Positions 25,428 to 40,250 of a DNA stretch of 64,000 bases are shown piece by piece (position 1 is the first letter of the stretch; the number at the start of each line of letters is the position of its first letter). The DNA comes from Parcubacteria group bacterium LiPW_30 (GTDB lineage Bacteria; Patescibacteriota; Minisyncoccia; Phycocordibacterales; VMEP01): NCBI GenBank assembly GCA_007375595.1, contig VMEP01000001.1:89274-153273 (forward strand), given 5' to 3'. The notes under the pieces were generated by a model. That model saw only the letters and a list, made by a program, of their open reading frames with translations. It did no database searches and was not told the origin of the DNA. A program made the translations under genes and the position numbers.

Positions 25428-26447
25428 TTAGAACTCCCTAACTTTAATAGTGCGGACAACAACACGAACTGTTTTTGAGTCCTTTCTGTCACTATAGGCG
25501 TTTGAACAAGTTAAGGTGAAATCTGTAGTTTCAAGAAGTTTACTTGTTGGATAGTCAAACGATGCCCCAGCAGAAAATCTGTCTGTTTCTTTTCCACTAT
25601 CTACCCCTACTCCAACAATAGTACAACCAGTGGCACCGTTAACAAACCAACTAACTACTGATCTCGTATTGGAGAAAATTGGATTTGGTGAAGCAGTAAG
25701 GGTCCAGTCCGTAGCTTGCGTCCATGTTGATTCGTCTGATTTCAAAGGATCAACATACGGACAATCTGACGGGCAGTTTGAATTATTTTCATTTATATCA
25801 CACGTCCCATTTCCGCCTGGTGTTGGGCAAGTCGTACAATTTAAATCAGATGGCGTAATCGCTGTGCATACACCAGTACAGCCAATTATTCCATTTGCTT
25901 TTTGGCCACAACTATTTGGCGCCGACTGACAAGCTACTCCATATCCAGAAATAACTGGCGGTGCAGTCTTCTCACTACAAGTTCCATCACAACCTATTGT
26001 GCCTTGATTTGACTGCCCACACACATTGGTCGCCAAACACACTCTTCCAAAATTAGGAGGAAGCGCTGGCGCAATAGCTCCACAAATTCCATTGCAATCT
26101 ATTGTCCCTTGGCTTGATCCACAAACATTTGCAGCTGAACATGTTTGACCATAATAAACACTACAAGATATATACCCGCCACCACTTGCGCCAGCATCAC
26201 CACCACTTGCTCCGGCACCTGATCCAGACCCCGCACCGGCGGCACCACAACCGGCGGCACCAGCAGAAGCAGAACAGCTTGCTGCCGCAGCAGCTGAACC
26301 AGAACCAAAAGCAATATTATAAAAAACACCCTTGGGTAAAACTGATACTGGAATAAAAAAATTAAAAAAGACTAAAACACCAAAAAAAAGAACTAGAGCC
26401 AATATATCCTTCTTTGTTTTATTTAACATAAAATTAAACTCTTTCAT
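25428..26447 (-). CDS. secreted Cys/Gly/Ala/Ser-rich modular protein with C-terminal beta-sandwich domain; paralog of the 30501..31406 protein
   Basis: 339 aa; N-terminal signal/TM, G/A/S/C low-complexity tract, repeated CGQSNQGTIGC…C and CGQKANGIIGCTGVCTAITPSDLNCTTCP modules, C-terminal …LTASPNPIFSNT…GATGCT…DYPTSKL…TDFTLTC…VRTI..REF domain. Confidence 0.7.
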   Translation of the reverse strand: MKEFNFMLNKTKKDILALVLFFGVLVFFNFFIPVSVLPKGVFYNIAFGSGSAAAAASCSASAGAAGCGAAGAGSGSGAGASGGDAGASGGGYISCSVYYGQTCSAANVCGSSQGTIDCNGICGAIAPALPPNFGRVCLATNVCGQSNQGTIGCDGTCSEKTAPPVISGYGVACQSAPNSCGQKANGIIGCTGVCTAITPSDLNCTTCPTPGGNGTCDINENNSNCPSDCPYVDPLKSDESTWTQATDWTLTASPNPIFSNTRSVVSWFVNGATGCTIVGVGVDSGKETDRFSAGASFDYPTSKLLETTDFTLTCSNAYSDRKDSKTVRVVVRTIKVREF

Positions 26448-26449
26448 TG

Positions 26450-27505
26450 TTATTTAATCCAACCACCAAACCATAAAAACTCATTGGTGTATTTATTTAA
26501 CTTTATAATATCCGTTGCAACAGAAGTCGCAATGTCATAGACAGAAATAACCACATATTCATTCCCCGTTTTTTCAGACACTCTTATTTCCTGCAAACCC
26601 AAAGACTTACCGTCTGGAGAAAATACAGACCAATAAGCTTTTACTTGGAAAACCTTAATCGGGGTTATAGAAAATGACTCCCATGAATTAATCTTTGAAA
26701 CAACGACATTTTTCTTTCCTGGTGAAGACCATGCGAGCATGTTCCTGTCACGAGATAAAGACAATTTCATCGTTTGAGAAGCTCGACCATCAACAGTTTT
26801 AACAACAACACCAATTTCTTTTGGATTTAAAGTGTCTTTAATATCAAAGATATATAACCCATCATTTTTTAAAACTAAAAGTTTTGTTTCGTCTGGAGAA
26901 AACAGAGGGTTAACTCCATTAGAAACCTTAACCGCTTTTCCAGAAAGATTAGTTAAGAAAACAGTCCAACCTTCCGGAAATTCAGTTGTTTCCCCTTCTT
27001 TAAGATCTTCTCTTTGAGAAATGTAAGCAATTAAAGACTTCGAAGGGCTTATTATTGGCTCTCTTTTAAAAACTTCTGGACCATTTGTTATTTGTCTTAT
27101 TCCTGTTCCATCTGGTAACGCTGTATATATTTGAATTGCTGGCTCACTTATCTTTCTGCCCGCAAAAACCATTATCGATTCATCGTCTGAAAATGAAGGT
27201 GATAAACGAATACTGTAATCCACCGCCGATGTTGAAGGATCAACCAATACACGCTGAAGTCTCCCTGAAATAAATTTGTAAGAATAAATACCTAAAGGTG
27301 TTGCAGTGTTGTCCGGGAAAAGAGAGAAGAACAAAGTTCCTGATATCTGTTGTTGTGGAACAACCACCTCAACGGGTGTTTTCACCACCTCCTTTCTTAA
27401 AAAACTTAAAAGAGAAGGCTGAAAAAACCAAACATAAAAACCGATGAGGACAACAACAATTATCCCAATAAGAACTAAGATTGCGGCGAGTTTTTTTGAT
27501 TCCAT
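26450..27505 (-). CDS. membrane-anchored TolB-like (PD40/WD40-like) beta-propeller protein
   Basis: 351 aa; N-terminal TM, repeated …SPDG(K/T)… PD40-like motifs. Confidence 0.55.
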   Translation of the reverse strand: MESKKLAAILVLIGIIVVVLIGFYVWFFQPSLLSFLRKEVVKTPVEVVVPQQQISGTLFFSLFPDNTATPLGIYSYKFISGRLQRVLVDPSTSAVDYSIRLSPSFSDDESIMVFAGRKISEPAIQIYTALPDGTGIRQITNGPEVFKREPIISPSKSLIAYISQREDLKEGETTEFPEGWTVFLTNLSGKAVKVSNGVNPLFSPDETKLLVLKNDGLYIFDIKDTLNPKEIGVVVKTVDGRASQTMKLSLSRDRNMLAWSSPGKKNVVVSKINSWESFSITPIKVFQVKAYWSVFSPDGKSLGLQEIRVSEKTGNEYVVISVYDIATSVATDIIKLNKYTNEFLWFGGWIK

Positions 27506-27544
27506 AAAATTTAAAAATTACTCCCTTAAGTGTAATACAAATAA

Positions 27545-28207
27545 CTATGCTTTCACAAGCACTCCAACCTCAGTCAGACGAAAATCTTCCTTAAAGAGCT
27601 TCTTACTCATAGCAAAAACCCCATAAGCTATGAACGGCGCAGCAAAAACATCAATCGTATAATGATAGTGCCCCAAAAGAGCGCTGACTCCCAAAAAAAT
27701 CGTCGTTGCGAGGAAAAAATTACGTAAAAAATTCTTATCCCAAAATACAAGTGACATCAAGTAGGTTGTGGCAACGTGTCCAGAAAAAAATAGATCTCCA
27801 CCAAAAGTAGCAAGAGAATTTATTGAAATTGAGTCAGGATATATTCCTATATTTGTCATGTTTATAAAACCAGCACGAACAACCGTGAGCATCGCCATGG
27901 TTTTCATTGCAAAAGGTAAGTAGCGCGGAAAAATAAGAAGTAAAATTATAGTTAAGTCGCGAATTCTCCCAGTAATTTCTCCATGGATAAAACTCGTGTC
28001 CATTCTTGGAACATTACTTAACACAATATCATTTACATAATTACTCGCATTTTCAGTTGCAAGCAAACCAGCCATTGAATTAATCAAATTCGCTAAATAA
28101 AGAAGACTGAAAGAAAGTAGTGCAATCAATAAAAATTCTCTATCAAGCCATAGATTCATATTATCTTTAAAATGTTGTGAAATTTTTTCTTTAATTTTAA
28201 AAAACAT
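27545..28207 (-). CDS. PAP2-superfamily membrane phosphatase / phosphotransferase-like protein
   Basis: 220 aa; PAP2 motifs …FSGHVATT… and …LLGHYHYTIDV…. Confidence 0.55.
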   Translation of the reverse strand: MFFKIKEKISQHFKDNMNLWLDREFLLIALLSFSLLYLANLINSMAGLLATENASNYVNDIVLSNVPRMDTSFIHGEITGRIRDLTIILLLIFPRYLPFAMKTMAMLTVVRAGFINMTNIGIYPDSISINSLATFGGDLFFSGHVATTYLMSLVFWDKNFLRNFFLATTIFLGVSALLGHYHYTIDVFAAPFIAYGVFAMSKKLFKEDFRLTEVGVLVKA

Positions 28208-28232
28208 AGTGTTTTACAGTAATCTATTATAT

Positions 28233-29099
28233 CTAGATTTTGCGAATTTTTTTTGAAAAATCAAAATCATTTTCTATATTCTGTCTAATCTTTTCGTCAA
28301 TAAGCGCTCCTTCTTTTGTCTCAGAAAAACTCCTACTTGTGTCAACGAGATGATTGTCATATAAATATTTATCAGAAAATATCGGAATAAACACCCTAAG
28401 TCCTAACAATGTATCATTTTTTTGTAATGATTTTTGTATATGTTGAATAACACTAGTAGCGCATGCATCTCTAAGCAAACTATACCATGTTGGTCTGTGG
28501 GACAACTCCTCGGCTCGAACAAACATATCTTCGGCAAGTATCTTCATACTCTCTTTAGGTAAAACAAGTGGATACAAATAAACTAAATTACCCCTAGAAA
28601 AAGCACGGAGAGTTAGGGCGTCTTTTTCATCAACAATTAAATAAGAAAGTTCAAGTTGCCGAAAGATAGTCTTAAAAAGAGAGTACTCCTCCCCTTTCTC
28701 CCTCATTCCCTCTGGTGAAATAGTAATATACGTTCCGTCTTCAAAACCAAAAGAGAGCATTGCGTGTGCTTTAAACTTACTGTCTGTAAAGGGTATCAAA
28801 ATATAATCTATTGAGCGGATAGTATTTAAGTCAAAAGTAGCATCATAATAGTCTTGTATATACGACTCCTTATCAGCGTGTAAAAAGCTTCTAACATTAT
28901 GAACTGTAACAATACTTCCACTAAAACTTACTTCGGGTAATTTTTGATACAAAGGATTATAATCATGCGAATATGTTGGTTCTACGGTGAAATACCAAGA
29001 AAGGAAAATAGCAAACAAAAAGATAATTAAAAGAATAAAAAAATTAAATACTTTTTTTAAAACTGGAAAAGTTTTTTGAAAAACCTTATTAAAATTCAT
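28233..29099 (-). CDS. hypothetical membrane-anchored protein (DUF4105/Lnb-like periplasmic domain suspected)
   Basis: 288 aa; N-terminal TM then a soluble domain with no recognised catalytic motifs. Confidence 0.35.
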   Translation of the reverse strand: MNFNKVFQKTFPVLKKVFNFFILLIIFLFAIFLSWYFTVEPTYSHDYNPLYQKLPEVSFSGSIVTVHNVRSFLHADKESYIQDYYDATFDLNTIRSIDYILIPFTDSKFKAHAMLSFGFEDGTYITISPEGMREKGEEYSLFKTIFRQLELSYLIVDEKDALTLRAFSRGNLVYLYPLVLPKESMKILAEDMFVRAEELSHRPTWYSLLRDACATSVIQHIQKSLQKNDTLLGLRVFIPIFSDKYLYDNHLVDTSRSFSETKEGALIDEKIRQNIENDFDFSKKIRKI

Positions 29100-29134
29100 T
29101 TATTAAATATAATGCCAATCTGTATAAAAAAGAA

Positions 29135-29167
29135 ATGCCACCCATACTTGAAAAAAGTGGGTGGCAT
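29135..29167 (-). terminator. rho-independent terminator after the 29194..29793 gene
   Basis: ATGCCACCCA…TGGGTGGCAT stem followed by T-run on minus strand. Confidence 0.55.
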
Positions 29168-29193
29168 CAAAGCTGATTGATTCATGTCCCGAA

Positions 29194-29793
29194 TTACTTC
29201 CTGACTTGAATCGCAGAGACCAATTCGCGAATCTTGTCCTTTACTGTCGAGTCGATGTTGCCGGCGTTCTGAACCCAGATGGTAAAGCCTAGGGTTTTTT
29301 CCTGCTTCCCGTCACTGTCGACAAACGAGCCACCGGGGGGCATCGGGATGTCGAAGTGATAGAACGAAACAAAGAACGTCCCGTGCTGAAGTGGCACTTC
29401 ACAATCGCGAATGACCCCCTTCTCGTTGACTGCGGAAGGTGCCGCTTCTTCGCGACACTTAATCTTCCCGTAGCCAAGGCCGTCTGACATCGCGTTATAA
29501 ACCACCTTCTCGACTGCCTCGGGCGTCACCATTTGGGTACGCCACAGGACAACGGTCCAGTAGGTTCTATCTTTCTGGATGCACACGGGGAACCGGAAAG
29601 TATTAACCCCCTCCCTCGGAAGTACTTGGTTTTTTGCAGAACATTTCAGGTCCCAGGAGAACCCGAAGAAACTCCGTTCCTGTTCGCGAAGGTCAATGGT
29701 AAAGCCATAGTTGTCGAGCAAAAATGGCTTCATCTCGACCGCCGAGGCGACAGACCAAAAAGCGCAAAGCAAAGCGAAAATCGTTTTTTTCAC
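29194..29793 (-). CDS. small secreted protein of unknown function, compositionally foreign (GC ~50%); GTG start with strong SD
   Basis: 199 aa; signal peptide MKKTIFALLCAFWSVASA; AAGGAGA SD; GC markedly above neighbours. Confidence 0.6.
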   Translation of the reverse strand: MKKTIFALLCAFWSVASAVEMKPFLLDNYGFTIDLREQERSFFGFSWDLKCSAKNQVLPREGVNTFRFPVCIQKDRTYWTVVLWRTQMVTPEAVEKVVYNAMSDGLGYGKIKCREEAAPSAVNEKGVIRDCEVPLQHGTFFVSFYHFDIPMPPGGSFVDSDGKQEKTLGFTIWVQNAGNIDSTVKDKIRELVSAIQVRK

Positions 29794-29935
29794 GGCTGTC
29801 TCCTTAAAAAAATCGTTATGTCAAAAAGCGGAATTTACCGCACAAAGCTAATGTTAATAATACATGAAATATACATTTTGTCAAACACACACCATGTATA
29901 AAATAATCGATAAAAAATAAATACTATATGTATAA

Positions 29936-29980
29936 AACAAAAAAAATGGGGGGGTACTTTACGTACCCCCCTTTTTTTCT
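29936..29980. terminator. bidirectional terminator (GGGGGGGTACTTTACGTACCCCCC hairpin with A/T flanks)
   Basis: Strong GC stem flanked by A-run and T-run between the two GC-rich genes. Confidence 0.65.
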
Positions 29981-30000
29981 TCTTGGCTTTCGCCGAATGT

Positions 30001-30405
30001 CTACATCTTCCAGATCTTCCGGACGGCGACGGCCTTGTTCTTCTCGCTGATGTACGGGCTCATTTCACAGGCCATCGTGGCGATCTGTCGCAAAATCAAC
30101 TTGTTGCGCGCGGATTCGGCGCCGGCCGGTGTGTGTACGCGAAACATCGCAGCCGCAACGGCAACGTTGAAGTTCTTGACGCGGCACTGCTTGTCCATCT
30201 TTTCCTTGTAGTCGTTGGCGAGAATAACGACGGTGTCGCGATATTCCTGACCACCGGCCGTCCACATCGCCTCAAGAACCATTTGGTTCGCGGCTTCGCT
30301 TGCGGAAAGCTTCTTTCCGGGTTGCGCAGCAACGGCCGTGGTGGCGAAAAGGAATGCGCCCAGCGCCAGCGAGACCAGCTTCAACAGCGTCTTCGTGCTT
30401 TTCAT
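30001..30405 (-). CDS. small secreted protein of unknown function, compositionally foreign (GC ~55%)
   Basis: 134 aa; signal peptide MKSTKTLLKLVSLALGAFLFATTAVAA; the overlapping + strand ORF (29983..30429) is Arg-rich antisense noise. Confidence 0.6.
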   Translation of the reverse strand: MKSTKTLLKLVSLALGAFLFATTAVAAQPGKKLSASEAANQMVLEAMWTAGGQEYRDTVVILANDYKEKMDKQCRVKNFNVAVAAAMFRVHTPAGAESARNKLILRQIATMACEMSPYISEKNKAVAVRKIWKM

Positions 30406-30500
30406 GGCCCTTCTCCTTTGTTTGATTGAATGTACGAGTCGTTGCTCCGGGAACTCCGAAACATCTTTATATCATACAGATAATTTAATTTTTGTCAAGT

Positions 30501-31406
30501 CTAAAACTCCCTAATATTAATAGTACGAACAATAACACGAACAGTTTTTGAGTCACTTCTACCACTGTAAGCATTTTTACAAGTTAAAGTGAAGTCAGTA
30601 TTTTCTTGCAGTTTACTTGTTGGGTAGTCAACGGCTGGTCCTCCTACATATCTATCGGTTTCTTTTCCGGTATTTACCCCAACTCCAACCAAAGTACATC
30701 CGGTTGCTCCAGTAACTTCGTAACTTACCATTGTTTTTGTATTAGAGAAGATTGGGTTTGGAGATGCTGTAAGAGCCCACTCTGAAGCAGGTGTCCAGAT
30801 AGCACCTTCTCCTGCTGGAGTTGATGTTGTTGCTGGAGCAACATATGGACAATCTGCTGGGCAGTTTGAATTATTTTCTTTTGGATCACAAACTCCGTTA
30901 CCTTTTGGTGCGGGACAAGTTGTACAATTTAAATCAGACGGTGTAATCGCTGTACATACACCAGTACATCCGATTATTCCGTTTGCTTTTTGCCCACAGC
31001 TATTAGCAGATGACTGACATGGTGTTCCGTATCCAGAAGGTAGTGCTGGTGCGGTGGTAACACTACAACCACCACCACAAACTATTGTTCCCTGGTTTGA
31101 CTGCCCACAAACATTTGAGACTAAACAAACTCTTCCAAAATCAGGTGCATCGTGATAATCACCAGACTCACAAGATGCTGGTATTATCTCCCCACCAAAA
31201 ACTCCTCTGGGTGAAATAGAGGTAAAACCAACTTCTAGTGACCCTGTGGCTATTTTATTTTTTGTATTGGAAATATTTTCTCCCACACTAAAAATAAACA
31301 ACACTCCGACAAAAAAAATAAGCAAAAATAATTTTCTTTTAATTTCTCTAAAAAAATAGCTGTCTTTATTCATTGTTGTTAATTTTATAATATCACGTAA
31401 AACCAA
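30501..31406 (-). CDS. secreted Cys-rich modular protein; last gene of the sagB-ycaO-TPR operon; paralog of 25428..26447
   Basis: 301 aa; N-terminal TM/signal, CGQSNQGTIVCGGGCS… and CGQKANGIIGCTGVCTAITPSDLNCTTCP modules identical to paralog, shared C-terminal beta domain. Confidence 0.7.
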   Translation of the reverse strand: MVLRDIIKLTTMNKDSYFFREIKRKLFLLIFFVGVLFIFSVGENISNTKNKIATGSLEVGFTSISPRGVFGGEIIPASCESGDYHDAPDFGRVCLVSNVCGQSNQGTIVCGGGCSVTTAPALPSGYGTPCQSSANSCGQKANGIIGCTGVCTAITPSDLNCTTCPAPKGNGVCDPKENNSNCPADCPYVAPATTSTPAGEGAIWTPASEWALTASPNPIFSNTKTMVSYEVTGATGCTLVGVGVNTGKETDRYVGGPAVDYPTSKLQENTDFTLTCKNAYSGRSDSKTVRVIVRTINIREF

Positions 31407-32259: not shown

Positions 32260-33717
32260 CTATGGAAATGGGTGTGGGTATGGATTTAATTTGAAATTTT
32301 CAACACCTTTATAGCGGGCGAATTGTTTTAACCTGTCACTATCAAAAGTTCCGTATTTTTCTACCAGAAACAACGGAAAGCAAAAAGGTATAAACGACTG
32401 TGCCACACGAAACCCTAATTTATCCATTGCTTTATTTTTAGGAAAATAAATAAGAGGGGTATACTCGCTCCCCAACTTAGTAAAAATATTTTCTAAAACA
32501 TTTGTTTCATCTTCTTCCCCTAAGGCGTTCGCGCTATTATTCACATAATTAAACACATCACCAGAAACAAACCACCTAAAAAGTTTAACCCACTCCTCTC
32601 CTTGCCACATTGTTATTCTTTTCTCTCTATCGATATCACTTATAAATGGGGTAAAATTACCAACCTCAACCTCTGCTTGATCCCTATCAAGATTAGCGAC
32701 ACATTGCTCGGCTTCTTCTAGCGCTTTTCTGACTGCAGAATGCAAATCAACACCAGCACCACCGGATACAGCAAAAGATTTTTTATTTAAATTATTCTTT
32801 CCAACGACGACACACGCTGAAGGGATACCTATGTTTGTTGTTGTTTCTAAAACATAAGTATCAACACCAATACTCTTAAAATCTTTTACGTACAAAAACA
32901 AATCCTCGGGTAATGATTCATTTATGATAACCTTTGGCGCAATTTGCGTTAACCAATGCACCAAAAAAGAATCTCTCTCTACGTATTCCAATATTGAATT
33001 TTTAATAACATCCTCCTTGGAAAAACCGCCAGCCGAACCGCTGGTGGTTGGATTCATGGTTATTATATTTTTTTTGCGCCTCCATGAAGTAAGACTTCTT
33101 GGTATCAAAGCAACTTCGTTGGTTAAAAAATTAAACCCCTTAACCCATTCTATCGCCTGATCATCATCTACTCTCAACTCCTTAAACAGCTCTCTTTGTT
33201 GTGGTAAAAATCTATGATATACAGGCGGGTAAAAAATATTTTTATATTTTATTTTTAATTCATTAAAAGAGCCCACAATAAAATCGTTATTTTCATCATA
33301 AAGCCCTGAGACAGCTCTTTCTATTAATTCCCCTATTGCCTTGGAGAGAGCCATGTCGCTATTCTTGTGGTGCCCAGTACTTTTTACTAAAAATTCTTCT
33401 CCGTCTAAAAGGCGCGTGGTATATATATTTATATTCCAATAAGAAGCAGTGTTCATTTTGCTTACCGCAGACAACATTTTGTTTCTATTCAAGAAATTAA
33501 TAATTATATCGTATGCGGGGCTATGGTCGTGAGGATATTTAATATAAACATCCTTAAGCCATGAAAACTTTAAAAATAAAGACAATAGAAAAATATGAAA
33601 TCTATCGCCAACACCAAGCGGTAATTTCCACGGTCCATTTTTTTGCATTTGGCGAATATCGTCAACGTAATCTTTCGCTAAAATATATCCAGGTGAATTA
33701 AATAAATTGTTTTCCAT
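32260..33717 (-). CDS. YcaO-domain protein (azoline-forming cyclodehydratase / backbone-amide activating enzyme family); second Met (MENNLF) taken as start
   Basis: YcaO ATP-binding signature GHHKNSDMALSKAIGELIERA; TSGSAGG motif; Pro-rich C-terminus NPYPHPFP characteristic of TOMM cyclodehydratases. Confidence 0.75.
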   Translation of the reverse strand: MENNLFNSPGYILAKDYVDDIRQMQKNGPWKLPLGVGDRFHIFLLSLFLKFSWLKDVYIKYPHDHSPAYDIIINFLNRNKMLSAVSKMNTASYWNINIYTTRLLDGEEFLVKSTGHHKNSDMALSKAIGELIERAVSGLYDENNDFIVGSFNELKIKYKNIFYPPVYHRFLPQQRELFKELRVDDDQAIEWVKGFNFLTNEVALIPRSLTSWRRKKNIITMNPTTSGSAGGFSKEDVIKNSILEYVERDSFLVHWLTQIAPKVIINESLPEDLFLYVKDFKSIGVDTYVLETTTNIGIPSACVVVGKNNLNKKSFAVSGGAGVDLHSAVRKALEEAEQCVANLDRDQAEVEVGNFTPFISDIDREKRITMWQGEEWVKLFRWFVSGDVFNYVNNSANALGEEDETNVLENIFTKLGSEYTPLIYFPKNKAMDKLGFRVAQSFIPFCFPLFLVEKYGTFDSDRLKQFARYKGVENFKLNPYPHPFP

Positions 33718-34506: not shown

Positions 34507-34536
34507 AGCGGGGCGGGTATTAAATATACCCGCCCC
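34507..34536 (-). terminator. terminator after GC-rich gene (GCGGGGCGGGTATTAAATATACCCGCCCCG)
   Basis: 10-bp GC stem; separates the GC-rich islet from the native sagB promoter region. Confidence 0.55.
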
Positions 34537-34565
34537 GGAAAATTCTGAAACACGTACTTTCCTTG

Positions 34566-35010
34566 CTACTTGACGACCTTCTTGAAGACACCGTTGTTGC
34601 GGCCGCCGGAAGGATCATGGTACCTGGCCCACAGCGTATCGCCGTGGTATTCAAAGATACAGGTACCGCTCCTTCGGGGATTGCATAGCCACGACAACTT
34701 GTCGCCCTTGATTTCTGCTCCTTCGAACGGCCATGGGTTCGTGGAGTTGTTTTCTCCGTACGAACCGCTGGCGACACAGTTCGTGCCGACCTCTTTGGCA
34801 TGAAGGCGCATCTCGCCGTAATTGCCGTAATCCCATTTGCCCACCCAAACTCCGACGAAGGCGACGCAATTTGCTGGGACAACAACCTCTGGCACCGACT
34901 TGGTGGCGTCACCTTCACCCGCCGCGAGCATCGTTTTTTGGGCAAAAGAAGGCAGGCCGAAGCCGAGGCAGAGACAAGTGGAAAATAACACCAAAAAACT
35001 CCTGATTTTC
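34566..35010 (-). CDS. small secreted protein of unknown function, compositionally foreign (GC ~53%); start at MKIRSF with GGAGG SD
   Basis: 148 aa; signal peptide MKIRSFLVLFSTCLCLGFGLPSFA; six overlapping spurious ORFs in other frames typical of local high GC. Confidence 0.55.
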
Positions 35011-35140
35011 ATGGCAACCTCCTCTTGATTTAAAATGAGTACCACTCTAAAGGTGCGGTCTTTTGTCACCTATCCATAATTGTACCATATTTTATAAATA
35101 ATGCAAGTACACAAAACCCGAGTGAAACGATTAGTATAAA

Positions 35141-36331
35141 TTACTTAAAATCAGGCTCCGTCCAACCATTAGACATGAGCCATGACTTAAATTCCGGTAC
35201 TTTATTCGCGATTAATAAAACATTCCACTTGCTGTAGATATCCATTCTTACATAATTACTACCTTCTAATTTTTGCTCAAACTTTGAATTTATTATTTTC
35301 TTAATAACACTTCCTTTGTATGAACTAGGTTTCTTTGTGTCAAAATTAAGAATAGGACCTAGTGCCATTTTTATTTCTTCGGAAGTACTTGAATCAAGTA
35401 TTGCCAAAGTTGATGAATTTACAAGAGAGGTGAAAATATTTAACTCAATAACAAAACGAGAGGAATAATCCATTGCAAATGTAAAAATTTCCCGCGATGT
35501 TTTAGCTGAAGTGTGATTGATGCCCATGGCCTCAAGGTAACGAAGGGTGGAGGCATATTGATTTAACCCAACCAAAATATCTCTGGCTGGAATATCGCTT
35601 GATGTTAACTTGCCTTCTAGTATTTTTACAACGTCATCGTTGGATGCAGACAAAAACTCTAACGCTTTTTTTATGTCACGCTCCATATTCTTTAAATAAA
35701 CACCTCTCTCCCCTTCTGGTATTTTCTTTGATCTAATTACTTTGAAATAAGTATTTCCGGCATACTGGTTTGCAGCTGTTGCTAATCCTGCAATATCAAC
35801 ATAACCATGTTTATGCAACACTTCTACGTAAGCAAGGTATATATAAAAAGACACCTCAGTATACGTTTGTGGTAATTTTTTATCCTTTAGTTTAAGAAAC
35901 TCTTCTGGATAAATACCTTCCGCTTCTTTAAGAAAAGAGAGTTCTGGGTGATTTTCTACATAATCATATATTTCATAGATATTACCCCCGTTATCGAAAA
36001 ATCTATGCGTAATGAAATAAGCGGCAGATTTCGTTTCCGCGTCATTAACACCTTTTTTAATATCCTCCACTAAAGATTTCTGAAGGGCTTCAGGTTTATT
36101 CTGTAACAAACTTTCGTAATAAGCTTTATCGTTCTGTAACAAACTTTCGTAATAAGCTTTATCGCGTTGTGCTATTTTGTTTGCCTTATCTTTTTCAAAA
36201 AAATAAAAAACGCTAAAAGAAATAAAGAAAAAAACAACAACTAGCGCAAAAAGGCTAACAAAAACAGCCTTGGATGAGATCTCGCTCACTGGCTCTTCTT
36301 GGTTATAAAAATCACCTTTTATTTCATTCAT
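35141..36331 (-). CDS. hypothetical membrane-anchored protein with internal 11-aa tandem repeat
   Basis: 396 aa; N-terminal TM; RDKAYYESLLQNDKAYYESLLQN from a 33-bp tandem DNA duplication (~36090-36160). Confidence 0.5.
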   Translation of the reverse strand: MNEIKGDFYNQEEPVSEISSKAVFVSLFALVVVFFFISFSVFYFFEKDKANKIAQRDKAYYESLLQNDKAYYESLLQNKPEALQKSLVEDIKKGVNDAETKSAAYFITHRFFDNGGNIYEIYDYVENHPELSFLKEAEGIYPEEFLKLKDKKLPQTYTEVSFYIYLAYVEVLHKHGYVDIAGLATAANQYAGNTYFKVIRSKKIPEGERGVYLKNMERDIKKALEFLSASNDDVVKILEGKLTSSDIPARDILVGLNQYASTLRYLEAMGINHTSAKTSREIFTFAMDYSSRFVIELNIFTSLVNSSTLAILDSSTSEEIKMALGPILNFDTKKPSSYKGSVIKKIINSKFEQKLEGSNYVRMDIYSKWNVLLIANKVPEFKSWLMSNGWTEPDFK

Positions 36332-36334
36332 AAC

Positions 36335-36616
36335 TTAAAATCCACCGTCGCCACTGCTACTACAATCACCGCCACCATCACCGCCACCACTACCCCCATC
36401 ACCATCACCACCACTACCCCCATCACCACCGCCACCAAAAGGATTAAATGGAACATCTGCTTTAGCAACAGGCACAAGGAAAGAGCTGTCTTTTGAGTAG
36501 TTAGAGCTTATGTAACCACCAATAGTTCCCAGTATCCCAGTAACCAAGATACTTAATAAAAATGATGTTTTCTTTTTTGCTTTTTGAATCATATTAGTGG
36601 TAAGTATATCACCCAA
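36335..36616 (-). CDS. small membrane-anchored protein with Gly/Asp/Ser-rich C-terminal tail (GGGGDGGSGGDGDGGSGGGDGGGDCSSSGDGGF)
   Basis: 93 aa; TM segment then low-complexity G/D/S/C tail; 3 bp downstream of the next gene's stop. Confidence 0.4.
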   Translation of the reverse strand: MGDILTTNMIQKAKKKTSFLLSILVTGILGTIGGYISSNYSKDSSFLVPVAKADVPFNPFGGGGDGGSGGDGDGGSGGGDGGGDCSSSGDGGF

Positions 36617-36640: not shown

Positions 36641-38578
36641 CTACACACCCTTTATTTTCTTAAGTAAAGAAGCGCCTATTAATATATGAGCTGTAGCATC
36701 AATCCAAACCTCTTGATTTAAATTATCATGGCGAAAACCACCTAAAATTTTCTCCCTAATATTATTTTTAACAAAAAAAGTGTTTTCTTTTGTGTATTGC
36801 ATGTCCATAATCCATAGCATTGTTTTCTCAATCACTTTTTTATTTTTCTCTAAATCCAAAGACAAAACTTCAAATATTTTTCCTGTCCCCCTAACGTAGG
36901 AAAATACCGAGCCATCTAAACTTGGGAAACTACCATCTTTTAACTGTTTCGAAACATACCAATCGTTAATTTTACTAGCATTTTCTAATAGTTCTTTATT
37001 ATTTGTTTTTTTACTTATCTCTTTAAATAAATAAATTAATTCCGGATACCTAGCTAGTTCTAATCTATTTTCCTTAATCCCCTTTTCATAATCTTCTAAA
37101 ACAATCTTAGTAAATTCTTTTGCTTTTTTTAAATAATCATCATCTTGAGACGCGACATCCATAAAATGAATAGCGATCTGTGAATATAAAATCGGCTCAT
37201 AACCTAAGTTGGGAATGAGGCTGATAATCATCTTTTCGCTTTTTTGGGCTTCTTCGTGTTCACCCAAAACAACAGCCAGTCTTCTGTAATAAATTAAAGA
37301 CAGACAACGCGAATATTCGGGAATGTATGGATGGTCATATAAGTTTTCTCTAAGATATAAAAAACTTTTTCTTGCTGGTTCTTTATACAAATCGTTTTTA
37401 GTCGTTTCTCCCCACAAAGAAAGCGCCCATGCTGTCAGAGCTGACCGAACCCAGTCTATTTGACTAATCTTGCCTGAGAGCGGATTTATAATCGGTGGAA
37501 TATTACCATCGCTTTCTTGAATCCTACAAATAAAGTCGGCGCTTTTGTTAACACTCTCGTAAAAACTAGAGTAAATCTCTTCTTCTTTAGTATCATCAAA
37601 ATGATTGTTACTTAAAACAATTGGCCCACTCAAAGATAATGGCTTCTTTTTTGTTGATTCTATAAAATTATCAACTTCAAATATTTCAATTAAAGCGTTC
37701 GGCAAAAAAAGTCTTGAGACACCAATCTTCTTTTCAATAAGGCTTACCAAAAAATCATTTAAACCACTGAATGAAACACAGTTAAAAACAGCTGGTAAAA
37801 ACCAACCCCGTCTACCGCCTACCGACATAAGATAGCCTTTTTCTGTATAAATAAAATTTGATGCTTTTTCCTTTTTTAAAAGCGGGATCCTTAAGCTAGA
37901 GAGAATTGCGATTTCAATCGTTGTGCTATTTAGCTCTTCAAACGAAACTGGTTTAAACCTTTCATCCCTACAGGCAAGTATCGTTGCCTCTTCAATAGCA
38001 CCCCCAAGCGGTAAACTCTCGATTATACGAGAACCGCGTAACTCACCACCAACCCACAAAGCAACGTCAACGTTCACTTTTTGAGAAAACCGACCTGTGG
38101 TAATTTTTGGCAAATCTTCCCTGTTGCCACCTTTTTTCAAAAAATTTTCTAAGATATGTCTAGAATGATTAAGTGCTTCTTCTTTTTCTTTTTCTTTTAA
38201 GCCGAAACGAATTGGTAAATTATCACTATGGTATTTTTCTTTATTTTCCCAAATCTCGAATTCGTTAGATAAAAAAATACTTTGCCAATCACTGGCGGAA
38301 CTAAAGTTGTTTTTCTCAAGAGCTTCATTAAGCCCGCCTTTTCTACAAAAAATAAAGGATGGTTTTTGTTTTGTTTTATCAAAAAAATTACCCTTCAAGA
38401 ACCTTTCTTGATGTGGAAGATCAATAAACACAACTTCATTTTCTAGTGAATTTTTTAAAAGCCAAGAAGAAAAAGCATTTATCTGCCTTAAATAATAGAT
38501 ATCGTTAAGTGTCTCAAAAAGATTAAGAAAAAACATAGATATTGTTGTAATTAGGCTTAATTGTATATACCAACACAT
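36641..38578 (-). CDS. multidomain protein: AMMECR1 domain fused to a C-terminal alpha/alpha-toroid-like domain
   Basis: 645 aa; AMMECR1 signature …VALWVGGELRGSRIIESLPLGGAIEEATILACRDERFKPV…GYLMSVGGRRGWFLPAV…; the C-terminal half has repeated (Q/K)xxDG(S/N) helical-repeat motifs. Confidence 0.5.
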   Translation of the reverse strand: MCWYIQLSLITTISMFFLNLFETLNDIYYLRQINAFSSWLLKNSLENEVVFIDLPHQERFLKGNFFDKTKQKPSFIFCRKGGLNEALEKNNFSSASDWQSIFLSNEFEIWENKEKYHSDNLPIRFGLKEKEKEEALNHSRHILENFLKKGGNREDLPKITTGRFSQKVNVDVALWVGGELRGSRIIESLPLGGAIEEATILACRDERFKPVSFEELNSTTIEIAILSSLRIPLLKKEKASNFIYTEKGYLMSVGGRRGWFLPAVFNCVSFSGLNDFLVSLIEKKIGVSRLFLPNALIEIFEVDNFIESTKKKPLSLSGPIVLSNNHFDDTKEEEIYSSFYESVNKSADFICRIQESDGNIPPIINPLSGKISQIDWVRSALTAWALSLWGETTKNDLYKEPARKSFLYLRENLYDHPYIPEYSRCLSLIYYRRLAVVLGEHEEAQKSEKMIISLIPNLGYEPILYSQIAIHFMDVASQDDDYLKKAKEFTKIVLEDYEKGIKENRLELARYPELIYLFKEISKKTNNKELLENASKINDWYVSKQLKDGSFPSLDGSVFSYVRGTGKIFEVLSLDLEKNKKVIEKTMLWIMDMQYTKENTFFVKNNIREKILGGFRHDNLNQEVWIDATAHILIGASLLKKIKGV

Positions 38579-38597: not shown

Positions 38598-40250
38598 ATG
38601 CCAAACGAAACAGAAACCGGAAAACTAAAAATAAAGGAAATCATAGAAAAAGAGGTTTTTGTAACAAAAGACAAAGAAAGAATTGTCGACCAAAATGGAG
38701 TAGACAATAGCTGGCTCTTTGATTTTAGGCGTGTTTTTTTAAGAGCAGATATCCTTGATACGGTAAGCGAATTATTTTGGGAAAAAATAAAAAATGAATA
38801 CCCTTTCCAAATAGGTGGCGTTGAAGTTGCCTCTATCCCCCTTATTACCTCTTTTGTTTTGAAAACTAAAGAAAAAGGCAAAATATCAAATGGTTTTTTT
38901 ATACGTAAATCACGTAAAAAAAGTGGTTTACTAAAAATGATTGAGGGAGAAATATCTAACGAAAAAATCATTTTGGTTGACGACATCTTAAATACCGGGA
39001 AAAGTTTTATTAGACAAGTTGAGGTTATTGAGGCGCTTGGCAAAAAAGTTAGTGCGGTATTTGTTGTCTTAAGATTTAGAGATTTACAATATTATGAATA
39101 TTTTAACGAACGTGGAATAAAAATTATCTCTCTTTTTGAGATTAATGATTTCAAGGACACACTAAAAATAGAAAATCTTATTAAATACGAAGAAAGACAA
39201 ACACCGATGCCATTTGAAACAGAGTGGTATTTCAAGAGCGAAAATCCAGACTACTTTAAGGTCATTCCAAAATCTCTACCAGCAATAGATAATGAAAAAA
39301 TTTATTTCGGTGGAGATAATGGAACTTTCTGGGCGTTAAATCAATCAAACGGAAACATAGCATGGAAATATAAAATTCTGTTTGGCGACAAAACAAAAAA
39401 AGTTTTTTCTTCGCCGATCGTCGACAATAATACTGTTTACTTTGGCGCCAACGACGGAAATTTTTATGCACTAGATTCAGAAAATGGAAAACGTAAATGG
39501 GTATTCATGGAAGCAGATTGGGTGGCCTCCTCTCCATGCATATCAAAAAGTTTAAATAGTATCTTTGTTGGACTAGAGTTTGGATTATGGGGAAAGCAAG
39601 GATGTCTTGTAGCCCTAGATTTAAATACAGGTAAAAAGAAGTGGGAATTTTCAATGTCTCAAATATCTTACTCATCACCCGCCTATTCTACGGAATCGAA
39701 CATAGTTGTTTGTGGTAATAATAATTATTCTGTTTATGGATTAGATGCAAAAACAGGAAAATTGGTCTGGGAATTTAAGACAGATGGTGAAGTAAAAGAA
39801 TCTTTCGCCTTTGACGAAAAACGTGGGTTAGTAGTTTTTGGTTCATTTGATTCGTATGTATATATTTTGGAAGCAAAAACAGGAAAACTTGTTCATAAAA
39901 CAAAGACAAATGAGGCAATATATTCTACTCCGTTGGTCCATGATGATTTTGTATACGTAGCTTCGCTTGATAAAAATCTATATTGCATTGATTTAAAAAA
40001 TGGCGCAATTGTATGGAGTTTTGCGACAAATGGCAGAATTTTTTCTTCTCCTGAAATAATTAACGACAAGATATATATTGGCTCAAATGATGGAAGACTA
40101 TATGAACTTGATAAAAAGACAGGAGAGAACACCGCTCTTTTCCAAGCAACTGAGCGGATAACAAACAAGGTCGTTTATAGTAAAAAAACCGATAGAATAT
40201 TTCTAACAACTTTTGCCAATGAGATTTATTGTTTAAAAAAGAATCTCTAA
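38598..40250 (+). CDS. fusion protein: type I phosphoribosyltransferase domain + PQQ-repeat beta-propeller
   Basis: 550 aa; PRTase PRPP-binding motif KIILVDDILNTGKSF; ≥7 PQQ-like repeats (…YALD..NGK..W…, …YGLDAKTGKLVWEF…). Confidence 0.6.
   Translation: MPNETETGKLKIKEIIEKEVFVTKDKERIVDQNGVDNSWLFDFRRVFLRADILDTVSELFWEKIKNEYPFQIGGVEVASIPLITSFVLKTKEKGKISNGFFIRKSRKKSGLLKMIEGEISNEKIILVDDILNTGKSFIRQVEVIEALGKKVSAVFVVLRFRDLQYYEYFNERGIKIISLFEINDFKDTLKIENLIKYEERQTPMPFETEWYFKSENPDYFKVIPKSLPAIDNEKIYFGGDNGTFWALNQSNGNIAWKYKILFGDKTKKVFSSPIVDNNTVYFGANDGNFYALDSENGKRKWVFMEADWVASSPCISKSLNSIFVGLEFGLWGKQGCLVALDLNTGKKKWEFSMSQISYSSPAYSTESNIVVCGNNNYSVYGLDAKTGKLVWEFKTDGEVKESFAFDEKRGLVVFGSFDSYVYILEAKTGKLVHKTKTNEAIYSTPLVHDDFVYVASLDKNLYCIDLKNGAIVWSFATNGRIFSSPEIINDKIYIGSNDGRLYELDKKTGENTALFQATERITNKVVYSKKTDRIFLTTFANEIYCLKKNL

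Follow-up and report, generated by a model that had tools for sequence, protein, structure and literature searches.

A candidate membrane-anchored stalk protein of Parcubacteria group bacterium LiPW_30 and its cysteine-rich paralog in a separate operon

The subject of this study is a cysteine-rich protein of 339 amino acids (aa), here called copy A, which is encoded on the minus strand at 25428-26447 of a stretch of 64,000 nucleotides from contig VMEP01000001.1 of the uncultured Parcubacteria group bacterium LiPW_30. The whole stretch is referred to below as the window. Copy A is a genuine, selected paralog of a second protein of the window, copy B (290 aa; 30501-31373, minus strand), and we put a probability of roughly 60% on the reading that it is a type-II membrane-anchored, extracellular, disulfide-stabilised stalk protein, which acts in attachment or ligand binding together with a PD40 propeller. 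In this arrangement, an uncleaved N-terminal helix would keep copy A in the membrane, a flexible spacer rich in glycine, alanine and serine (G/A/S) would bridge the envelope, a rigid stalk would be built from three small hairpin modules with four Cys each and a knot with five, and an FN3/Ig-like domain at the tip would offer the likely binding surface. Copy A and the PD40 propeller, which is encoded 2 bp upstream, would act together as an envelope device for surface attachment or ligand binding. The two paralogs would be kept similar in their shared C-terminal two-thirds by recurrent gene conversion, and their differing N-terminal thirds would tie them to different operons.

Paralogy and evolution of the two copies

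In the list of open reading frames (ORFs), copy A is the last gene of a unit that comprises a GC-rich 199-aa gene, Lnb_N, PAP2_C, PD40 and copy A itself, and copy B is the last gene of a unit with the order SagB, YcaO, TPR and B. An earlier reading of the DNA alone, referred to here as the original prediction, had described the two proteins as paralogs, and pairwise alignment with BLASTP bears this out with 153 identities in 214 positions (71%, E 1e-110). The match spans residues 131-339 of A and 88-301 of B and reaches both C-termini; the corresponding DNA is about 75-80% identical. It covers the modules M2-M3, the five-Cys knot and the C-terminal domain, which are common to both proteins, whereas the N-terminal thirds do not align and are unrelated. 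A likeness confined to low-complexity composition is ruled out, as the modules align and the low-complexity tract of copy A matches nothing in B. The C-terminal domains had been called near-identical; they are indeed similar, but an identity of 74% over 92 aa makes this wording an overstatement. No copies other than these two were found in the 64-kb window by tblastn. For copy B, the ORF given in the original prediction (30501-31406) holds the gene, but its upper boundary has to be moved, with the start most likely at 31373 (MNKDSYFF). Started there, the 290-aa protein matches LiPW30_110, a public protein of Parcubacteria group bacterium LiPW_30, at every residue, and copy A differs from one public protein in a single residue (D217N). 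The G+C content at third codon positions (GC3) of copy A is 0.25, similar to that of its neighbours.

A word-based homolog search yielded 14 close relatives, and its repetition with a family profile gave the same 14, which are labelled, where a label is present, as Paceibacterota, Parcubacteria or Patescibacteria. Related loci are given here as L numbers and single distant relatives as P numbers; L002 is the metagenome-assembled genome (MAG) WC724. A scan of genome contigs found one species representative, L007, and this closest genome, whose AI-2E permease is 98% identical, served as the reference for the ratio of nonsynonymous to synonymous substitution rates (dN/dS). The ratio is 0.10 for copy A and 0.16 for copy B, with 0.04-0.15 in the neighbouring genes, and dS is higher in A, B and the TPR gene. 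Strong positive selection was considered and rejected, as values of 0.10-0.16 indicate purifying selection.

Orthologs of copy A hold the same position in L002, L003 and L007, and the similarity between A-type and B-type genes differs from segment to segment and from genome to genome. In L007, the M2-M3 segments of A and B share approximately 100% DNA identity and the C-terminal domains 79%. The C-terminal domains of A and B share 94% identity within WC724, as opposed to 74-80% between WC724 and the other genomes. The window itself shows the orthologous pattern, in which A is nearest to other A copies and B nearest to other B copies. This segment-wise mosaicism argues for recurrent gene conversion between the paralogs, so that two paralogs are each tied to their own conserved operon while swapping sequence. 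The original prediction had also spoken of a diversifying family, and this stands in so far as modules have been gained and lost, so that their number varies from two to four, the spacer carries insertions and deletions, and A and B undergo gene conversion; it does not stand as diversifying selection, since the family varies under overall purifying selection.

Domain architecture and the candidate surface role

The N-terminal membrane helix of copy A was read directly from the sequence and comprises 23 residues (residues 15-37, ILALVLFFGVLVFFNFFIPVSVL; 26337-26405, minus strand). It is preceded by the basic segment KTKKD, and the positive-inside rule predicts an orientation with the N-terminus inside and the C-terminus outside. 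AlphaFold2 places a helix over residues 2-31. By composition, residues 48-93 (46 aa; 26169-26306, minus strand) form a G/A/S low-complexity spacer with the conserved cysteines C58 and C67, which agrees with the G/A/S/C tract described in the original prediction, as it holds 16 G, 16 A, 9 S and 2 C. The spacer is disordered in the AlphaFold2 model, in which residues 32-95 have a predicted local distance difference test (pLDDT) value below 50. Its length and sequence differ among the A-type orthologs, and the two tract cysteines are kept in every one of them. A DNA microsatellite or contingency repeat as the basis of the tract was tested and discarded, as no DNA tandem repeat is present. In the family alignment, the A-type N-terminus reads 'LPKGVFYNIAFGS' followed by the G/A/S/C tract, and the B-type N-terminus reads 'SLEVGFTS.SP.G..GGEIIPASCESGDYHD' instead.

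The spacer is followed by three tandem four-Cys modules of 34-38 aa each (residues 95-203; 25839-26165, minus strand), which were delimited by regular-expression parsing and the family alignment. Their pattern is C-x5/6-C-G-x4/5-G-T-I-x-C-x-G-x-C, of which the regular expression finds three in copy A and two in copy B; in the AlphaFold2 model of A, the modules form short beta-hairpins with a pLDDT of about 75. Next comes a five-Cys knot, C-TT-C-P-x5-GT-C-x8-C-P-x-D-C-P, defined by the family alignment (residues 204-230; 25758-25838, minus strand), the positions of which are invariant or nearly invariant across the family. The pLDDT of this segment is below 50, too low for a confident fold. A short linker joins the knot to the C-terminal FN3/Ig-like beta-sandwich (residues 247-339; 25431-25709, minus strand), which contains one Cys pair, C275 and C314, and has a conserved REF end. 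The domain is predicted as a seven-strand beta-sandwich that can be superimposed on FN3 domains, and the chains end in VREF in copy A and IREF in copy B.

Beyond the close relatives, an exhaustive profile search found the module in 415 metagenome protein clusters at E<=1e-3 and in 219 at E<=1e-10. Many of the module-bearing proteins are 1000-2300 aa long, with up to 11 matched stretches. In a Pfam scan of 60 module proteins, no listed family covers the module itself, and the neighbouring domains are TSP_3, MopE-type, Big_9, PKD, FG-GAP, CBM96, dockerin and type IV secretion system (T4SS) pilin, all of which are extracellular domains. An even total of cysteines was counted in each of the 12 full-length close members (16-26 Cys), although these contain between two and four modules, and in 101 of 143 distant relatives (p 9e-7). 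Even counts fit the signature expected of fully disulfide-bonded extracellular proteins, and disulfide bonding is what we infer from them. The A-type layout of signal or membrane segment, G-rich tract, modules and a C-terminal domain ending in E[FI] is repeated in P0046, P0112 and P0114. The suggestion of the original prediction that these proteins form a surface or adhesion family fits this picture, with a membrane helix at the N-terminus of both copies, even cysteine counts, an FN3/Ig-like C-terminal fold and extracellular co-occurring domains.

Several points weigh against the surface stalk reading. The membrane topology and the disulfide bonding on which it builds are deduced rather than observed, as are the adhesive function and the pairing with the propeller. 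The AlphaFold2 model is of no more than moderate quality, with a mean pLDDT of 59.5, a predicted template modelling (pTM) score of 0.29 and an underlying alignment of 13 sequences. The model matches the FN3/Ig sandwich, a fold so widespread that it tells nothing of a ligand; a Foldseek comparison with the PDB returned nothing at E<=1e-3 and only generic Ig/FN3 matches. For the module and the C-terminal domain, no function can be derived from homology: scans of A and B against Pfam (E<=0.1), NCBIfam and PHROGs gave no matches, and the family profile had no meaningful match among PDB sequences (best E 0.53). A view of the tract as a pure spacer leaves its two conserved cysteines without explanation, and no propeller was found beside the distant relatives P0013 and P0083. 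The role as an adhesin is drawn by analogy, and a role in structure or envelope biogenesis would fit the lipid-related Lnb_N and PAP2_C equally well.

This last point leads to an alternative in which copy A is a structural component of the envelope, such as a scaffold of the wall or S-layer, and its C-terminal sandwich with the xEF end is an anchoring or sorting element that is read by the propeller in the case of A and by the TPR protein in the case of B. The end xE[FILV] after a similar C-terminal sandwich occurs in 44 of 147 distant relatives that are otherwise different, as would be expected of a sorting or anchoring module, and each paralog is directly preceded by a membrane-anchored scaffold of the peptide-binding type, PD40 for A and TPR for B. 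The strong purifying selection is consistent with such a role as well. However, no known sorting system uses a domain of this kind in the monoderm-like cells of the Candidate Phyla Radiation (CPR), and anchoring at both ends of the protein would be unusual. We consider a structural role unlikely and prefer a membrane-anchored stalk with a binding domain at its tip.

Operon context and candidate modification partners

Directly upstream of copy A, a 351-aa membrane-anchored PD40-repeat beta-propeller is encoded at 26450-27505 (minus strand; Pfam PD40, E 5.7e-6), and the gap of 2 bp between the two genes is as originally described. The label 'TolB-like' holds for the propeller as such, with PD40 repeats and an N-terminal membrane helix, but the protein is not a TolB ortholog, as TIGR02800 scores 25.9 bits against a cutoff of 343. 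Further upstream are a PAP2_C membrane phosphatase/transferase-like gene (27545-28207, minus strand; PF14360, E 3.1e-9), syntenic in L002, L003 and L007, and a gene for an Lnb_N (DUF4105) protein with one N-terminal membrane helix (28233-29099, minus strand; PF13387, E 5.2e-22), syntenic in L002 and L007; the PAP2 and DUF4105-like labels given previously were both correct. The unit probably begins with the GC3-rich gene of a 199-aa secreted protein (29194-29793, minus strand), which is preceded by a sigma-70-like promoter match in 11 of 12 positions at 29857-29884. In L002 and L007, the homolog of the 199-aa gene is directly followed by Lnb_N; in L003, it precedes PAP2_C. The complete A-type order, found in the window, L002 and L007, is a GC-rich 134-aa gene, the GC-rich 199-aa gene, Lnb_N, PAP2_C, PD40 and A; the order in L003 is the same without a detectable Lnb_N, for which no match was found at that locus.

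Two much more distant lineages also have a propeller beside A-like proteins. In L004, a PD40 homolog of 344 aa (21% identity over 328 aa, E 3e-7) overlaps the gene of the A-like P0014 by 4 bp, and in L015, a 334-aa PD40 propeller homolog (E 5e-13) and an LNT_N gene are located just upstream of the A-like P0046.

The B-type order of SagB, YcaO, TPR and B is found in L001, L003, L007, L018 and the window. The window, L003 and L007 are the only cases in which the A unit adjoins the B unit, and it is only there that the whole A operon, from the 134-aa gene to copy A (25428-30405), sits between B and the AI-2E permease. In the other close relatives compared (L017, L021, L022 and L001), B abuts AI-2E directly, and in L017, L021 and L022 both AI-2E and the methionyl-tRNA synthetase gene (MetRS) follow B without an intervening A operon. 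The WC724 MAG even has A and B/YcaO on different contigs, of 476 kb for A and 77 kb for YcaO. This differing placement points to a position-variable block that was inserted or moved as a unit. In the consensus scan, promoter-like matches in 11 of 12 positions precede both the 134-aa gene (30471-30498) and the 199-aa gene on the minus strand; a strong G+C-rich terminator-like site follows the 134-aa gene (29949-29971, minus strand), and no terminator-like site was found downstream of the 199-aa gene.

Three signal-peptide genes, all on the minus strand, stand out by their GC3 of 0.65-0.77, as opposed to 0.21-0.31 in every neighbour: the 199-aa gene, the 134-aa gene (30001-30405) and a 148-aa gene (34566-35012), which is followed by a terminator-like site with a 12-bp stem (34509-34537, minus strand). 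The original prediction had the paralogs bracketing foreign GC-rich islets. The bracketing applies to one stretch, 29194-30405, and not to several, and this stretch is not obviously foreign, because syntenic and equally GC3-high homologs of the three genes occur in L001, L002, L003 and L007. Homologs of the 148-aa protein also adjoin YcaO clusters in the distant L008-L010, again with a GC3 above that of their neighbours, and the three genes are neither junk nor a one-off insertion. The 199-, 134- and 148-aa ORFs have no match in PHROGs, Pfam or NCBIfam; a phage or plasmid origin was considered for the 199-aa ORF and dropped, as there was no PHROGs match and the plasmid search, carried out with this ORF only, returned nothing.

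The original prediction further proposed the paralogs as alternative substrates for the YcaO system. For copy A, this would mean that Ser and Cys of the tract are converted to azol(in)es by SagB/YcaO, giving a core of the microcin-B17 type inside a large protein, which we regard as very improbable. The composition of the tract does resemble the G/S/C-rich cores of azole peptides, and its two cysteines are conserved while the rest varies. A SagD-like YcaO (TIGR03604, 142 bits) is encoded beside a SagB-family dehydrogenase (TIGR03605, 108.5 bits, above cutoff), and a distance of 5-7 kb separates YcaO from the A gene downstream of it in the window, L003 and L007. However, the two promoter matches and the strong terminator lie between the YcaO unit and copy A, which is the last gene of the other unit. 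Linkage to YcaO is not conserved for A, considering the separate contigs of WC724 and the loci, at least L017, L021 and L022, in which B directly precedes AI-2E/MetRS; the conserved link to the YcaO cluster belongs only to copy B. The tract is C-terminal to a 23-residue membrane helix with a positive N-terminus and should hence be outside the cell, whereas YcaO and SagB, which have no obvious signal peptide or transmembrane segment by eye, are presumably cytoplasmic. Copy A also lacks the form of a short precursor of thiazole/oxazole-modified microcins or linear azol(in)e-containing peptides (LAP), with its 339 aa, membrane helix, folded domains and a tract with 2 Cys and 9 Ser in 46 residues, in which the Cys spacing differs in L003, and nothing in its sequence resembles the leader region of the small candidate precursors. 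Known azole-peptide precursors are approximately 50-100 aa long and carry a leader that is recognised by the synthetase in the cytoplasm.

A better precursor candidate than copy A is a 93-aa ORF at 36335-36616 (minus strand), whose N-terminal segment is hydrophobic and which contains the motif 'AKADVP' and a tail rich in G/D/S/C that ends in ...GGGGDGGSGGDGDGGSGGGDGGGDCSSSGDGGF. A gene for a 396-aa membrane protein (35141-36331, minus strand) begins 3 bp downstream of it, and YcaO is neighboured by homologous pairs of a small and a large gene in L001 and L003 as well as in L009 and L010, two distant CPR loci. The ORF fits the published type much better than copy A does; in that type, CPR azole-peptide clusters contain YcaO and a nitroreductase with a precursor of about 84 aa beside YcaO (110 clusters in 93 CPR genomes; PMC7298704). 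The corresponding small ORFs of L013 and L014 have G/D-rich tails without Cys, so that the 93-aa ORF is itself not a certain precursor. With its own promoted operon, the unconserved linkage, the tract beyond the membrane helix and a better precursor nearby, copy A loses a tempting but unsupported label as a substrate for ribosomally synthesised and post-translationally modified peptide (RiPP) chemistry, and a better candidate is indicated in its place.

The YcaO neighbourhood showed some further features. The C-terminus of YcaO (32260-32290, minus strand) ends in NPYPHPFP, which we take to resemble the proline-rich end typical of azoline-forming YcaO proteins. The gap between SagB and YcaO is 4 bp if YcaO starts at 33717, and the longest YcaO ORF, to 33762, overlaps SagB. 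The region is flanked by an AMMECR1-domain fusion (645 aa; 36641-38578, minus strand) and a PRTase-PQQ beta-propeller fusion (550 aa; 38598-40250, plus strand), and both genes recur beside YcaO/SagB in L003, L008-L010 and L014, which suggests that YcaO belongs to a larger neighbourhood of about 8-10 genes conserved in the CPR.

A second proposal for the tract cysteines is lipidation. It starts from the observation that genes resembling N-acyltransferases recur near the family: Lnb_N beside A and Lnt in L013 and L015. Lnb_N/DUF4105 is named after the Bacteroides lipoprotein N-acyltransferase Lnb, an NlpC/P60-like enzyme (PMC11573676), and is present in the A operon of the window, L002 and L007; in L013, LNT_N and CN_hydrolase are directly upstream of a PASC-type protein (see below), and the LNT_N gene of L015 has been mentioned. 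The tract cysteines, in the lipobox-like contexts A-S-C and A-G-C, could be acylated by Lnb_N and PAP2_C of the operon, with a lipid anchor replacing the helix or adding to it, and [AS][SG] does precede both tract cysteines in all five A-type sequences. However, a classical lipobox, [LVI][ASTVI][GAS]C, is absent: the hydrophobic segment ends at L37 and C58 lies 21 residues further on, the tract cysteines being in general about 20-30 residues past the segment instead of at its end, and position -3 is Ala and not Leu. The A operon of L003 lacks a detectable Lnb_N, and the Lnt-adjacent P0046 has no Cys near its signal segment. In the PASC-type relatives, the signature Cys belongs to an even total in 28 of 30 proteins, which favours disulfide pairing. 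Moreover, Lnt/Lnb and PAP2 have many other possible substrates in the envelope, and their co-location may reflect only a shared envelope theme. Lipidation of copy A is judged improbable, and the helix is retained as the anchor of the stalk.

Copy B carries an N-terminal signature of its own, SLEVGFTSISPRGVFGGEIIPASCESGDYHD (B residues 45-75; 31149-31241, minus strand), which was defined from the family alignment and is not in copy A. It has the form 'SSE.GF..SP.G..GG.ΦΦPASC[E/P]S..HD' and follows a membrane helix. The core 'ΦPASC[E/D/P]' occurs in 30 of 147 distant relatives, which are otherwise different surface proteins. In the distant L008 (1-2088) and L010 (1-1556), a TPR homolog is followed by a large surface protein with '...SSEL.YIE.S..G..AGSVVPASC[ED]S' past a membrane helix. 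The genomic context was looked up for two of the 30 PASC-type relatives: P0110 (L014, 8001-10493) is accompanied by YcaO, TPR, AMMECR1, a PRTase-PQQ propeller and a small ORF of 97 aa, and P0131 (L013, 8001-9500) is preceded by an ORF of 72 aa, the genes of a 369-aa protein and of TPR, and one resembling Lnt, with YcaO absent within 17 kb. Proteins with the signature are usually beside a homologous TPR gene, often in a YcaO/SagB/PRTase-PQQ/AMMECR1 neighbourhood. The even totals of the PASC-type proteins (p 9e-7) suggest that the signature Cys is disulfide-paired and not heterocyclised or lipidated. The signature looks like a recognition or sorting element and is in no library searched. Positions 1-9500 of L013 contain an inverted duplication of '369/386-aa protein, TPR, Lnt, PASC-type surface protein', with the 72-aa G/D-tailed ORF at its centre. 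It was also examined whether the N-terminus of copy A might be a degenerate PASC signature; both contain 'KGVF', which hints at this, but a pairwise E of 0.054 does not establish the relation.

The recurrence of acyltransferase-like genes allows a bolder scheme, in which A-type and B-type proteins are dedicated exported clients of two CPR-specific envelope maturation cassettes. The spacer cysteines of A would be modified by an Lnb_N/Lnt-type acyltransferase and PAP2 before the protein is handled by PD40, and the TPR protein of the YcaO/SagB/PQQ-propeller/AMMECR1 neighbourhood would read the 'SSE-x-GF...SP-x-G..GG..PASC[E/P]S' signature of B. We consider this scheme doubtful, with little more than an outside chance; if it were true, the spacer and the signature motif would represent N-terminal signals of a new class, which direct the sorting or modification of surface proteins in Patescibacteria. 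In any case, the recurrent neighbours, namely the membrane propeller, the N-acyltransferase-like genes and TPR/YcaO, are concrete partners that can be tested.

Relation to known systems

CPR/Patescibacteria are thought to live attached to host cells, and their surface molecules are almost entirely uncharacterised. Copy A is a compact member of a large undescribed family of at least 415 clusters, which combines a new disulfide module with a conserved C-terminal sandwich.

Among the known systems, the precursors of microcin B17 and other LAPs share with copy A a G/S/C-rich low-complexity stretch, and its genome region contains a SagB-YcaO pair. They differ from it in that copy A is a 339-aa membrane protein of another operon, with an unconserved linkage and only two cysteines in the tract. 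The eukaryote-type thrombospondin (TSP) type-1 and epidermal growth factor (EGF)-like repeats are, like the modules, short (about 35 aa), tandem and extracellular units with 4-6 Cys, and they build rigid stalks, as is proposed for the modules. A distant relative, P0013, even has a genuine TSP_1 domain directly before four of the modules described here. However, this is a separate domain, and neither A nor B belongs to the thrombospondin type-1 family: both lack Pfam TSP_1 and EGF matches and have a Cys spacing of their own, C-x5/6-C-x9/10-C-x3-C, together with the G-T-I motif.

The MSCRAMM-like adhesins of Gram-positive bacteria (microbial surface components recognising adhesive matrix molecules) with Ig folds resemble copy A in their general plan of an anchor, a low-complexity spacer, a repeated stalk and an Ig-like binding domain, and in their variable repeats and recombining paralogs. 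They have no known sequence relationship to it and differ in construction, with a C-terminal LPXTG anchor and an Ig stalk held by isopeptide bonds, whereas copy A has an N-terminal anchor and a stalk that would be based on disulfides.

A counterpart within the CPR is formed by the large extracellular cysteine-rich proteins of Peribacteria (Anantharaman et al. 2016; PMC4736985). The general kind, cysteine-rich extracellular CPR proteins with a proposed attachment function, is already in the literature, while the module family is in no library searched. Compared by description, the Peribacteria proteins are much larger, with an average of about 1,650 aa and no modules resolved, as opposed to the 339 aa and defined modules of copy A. 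They have in common with it that they come from the CPR, consist of 5.5-7% Cys, are predicted to be exported or membrane-associated and carry no functional annotation; they vary between strains, and a role in attachment has been proposed for them as well (PMC4736985).

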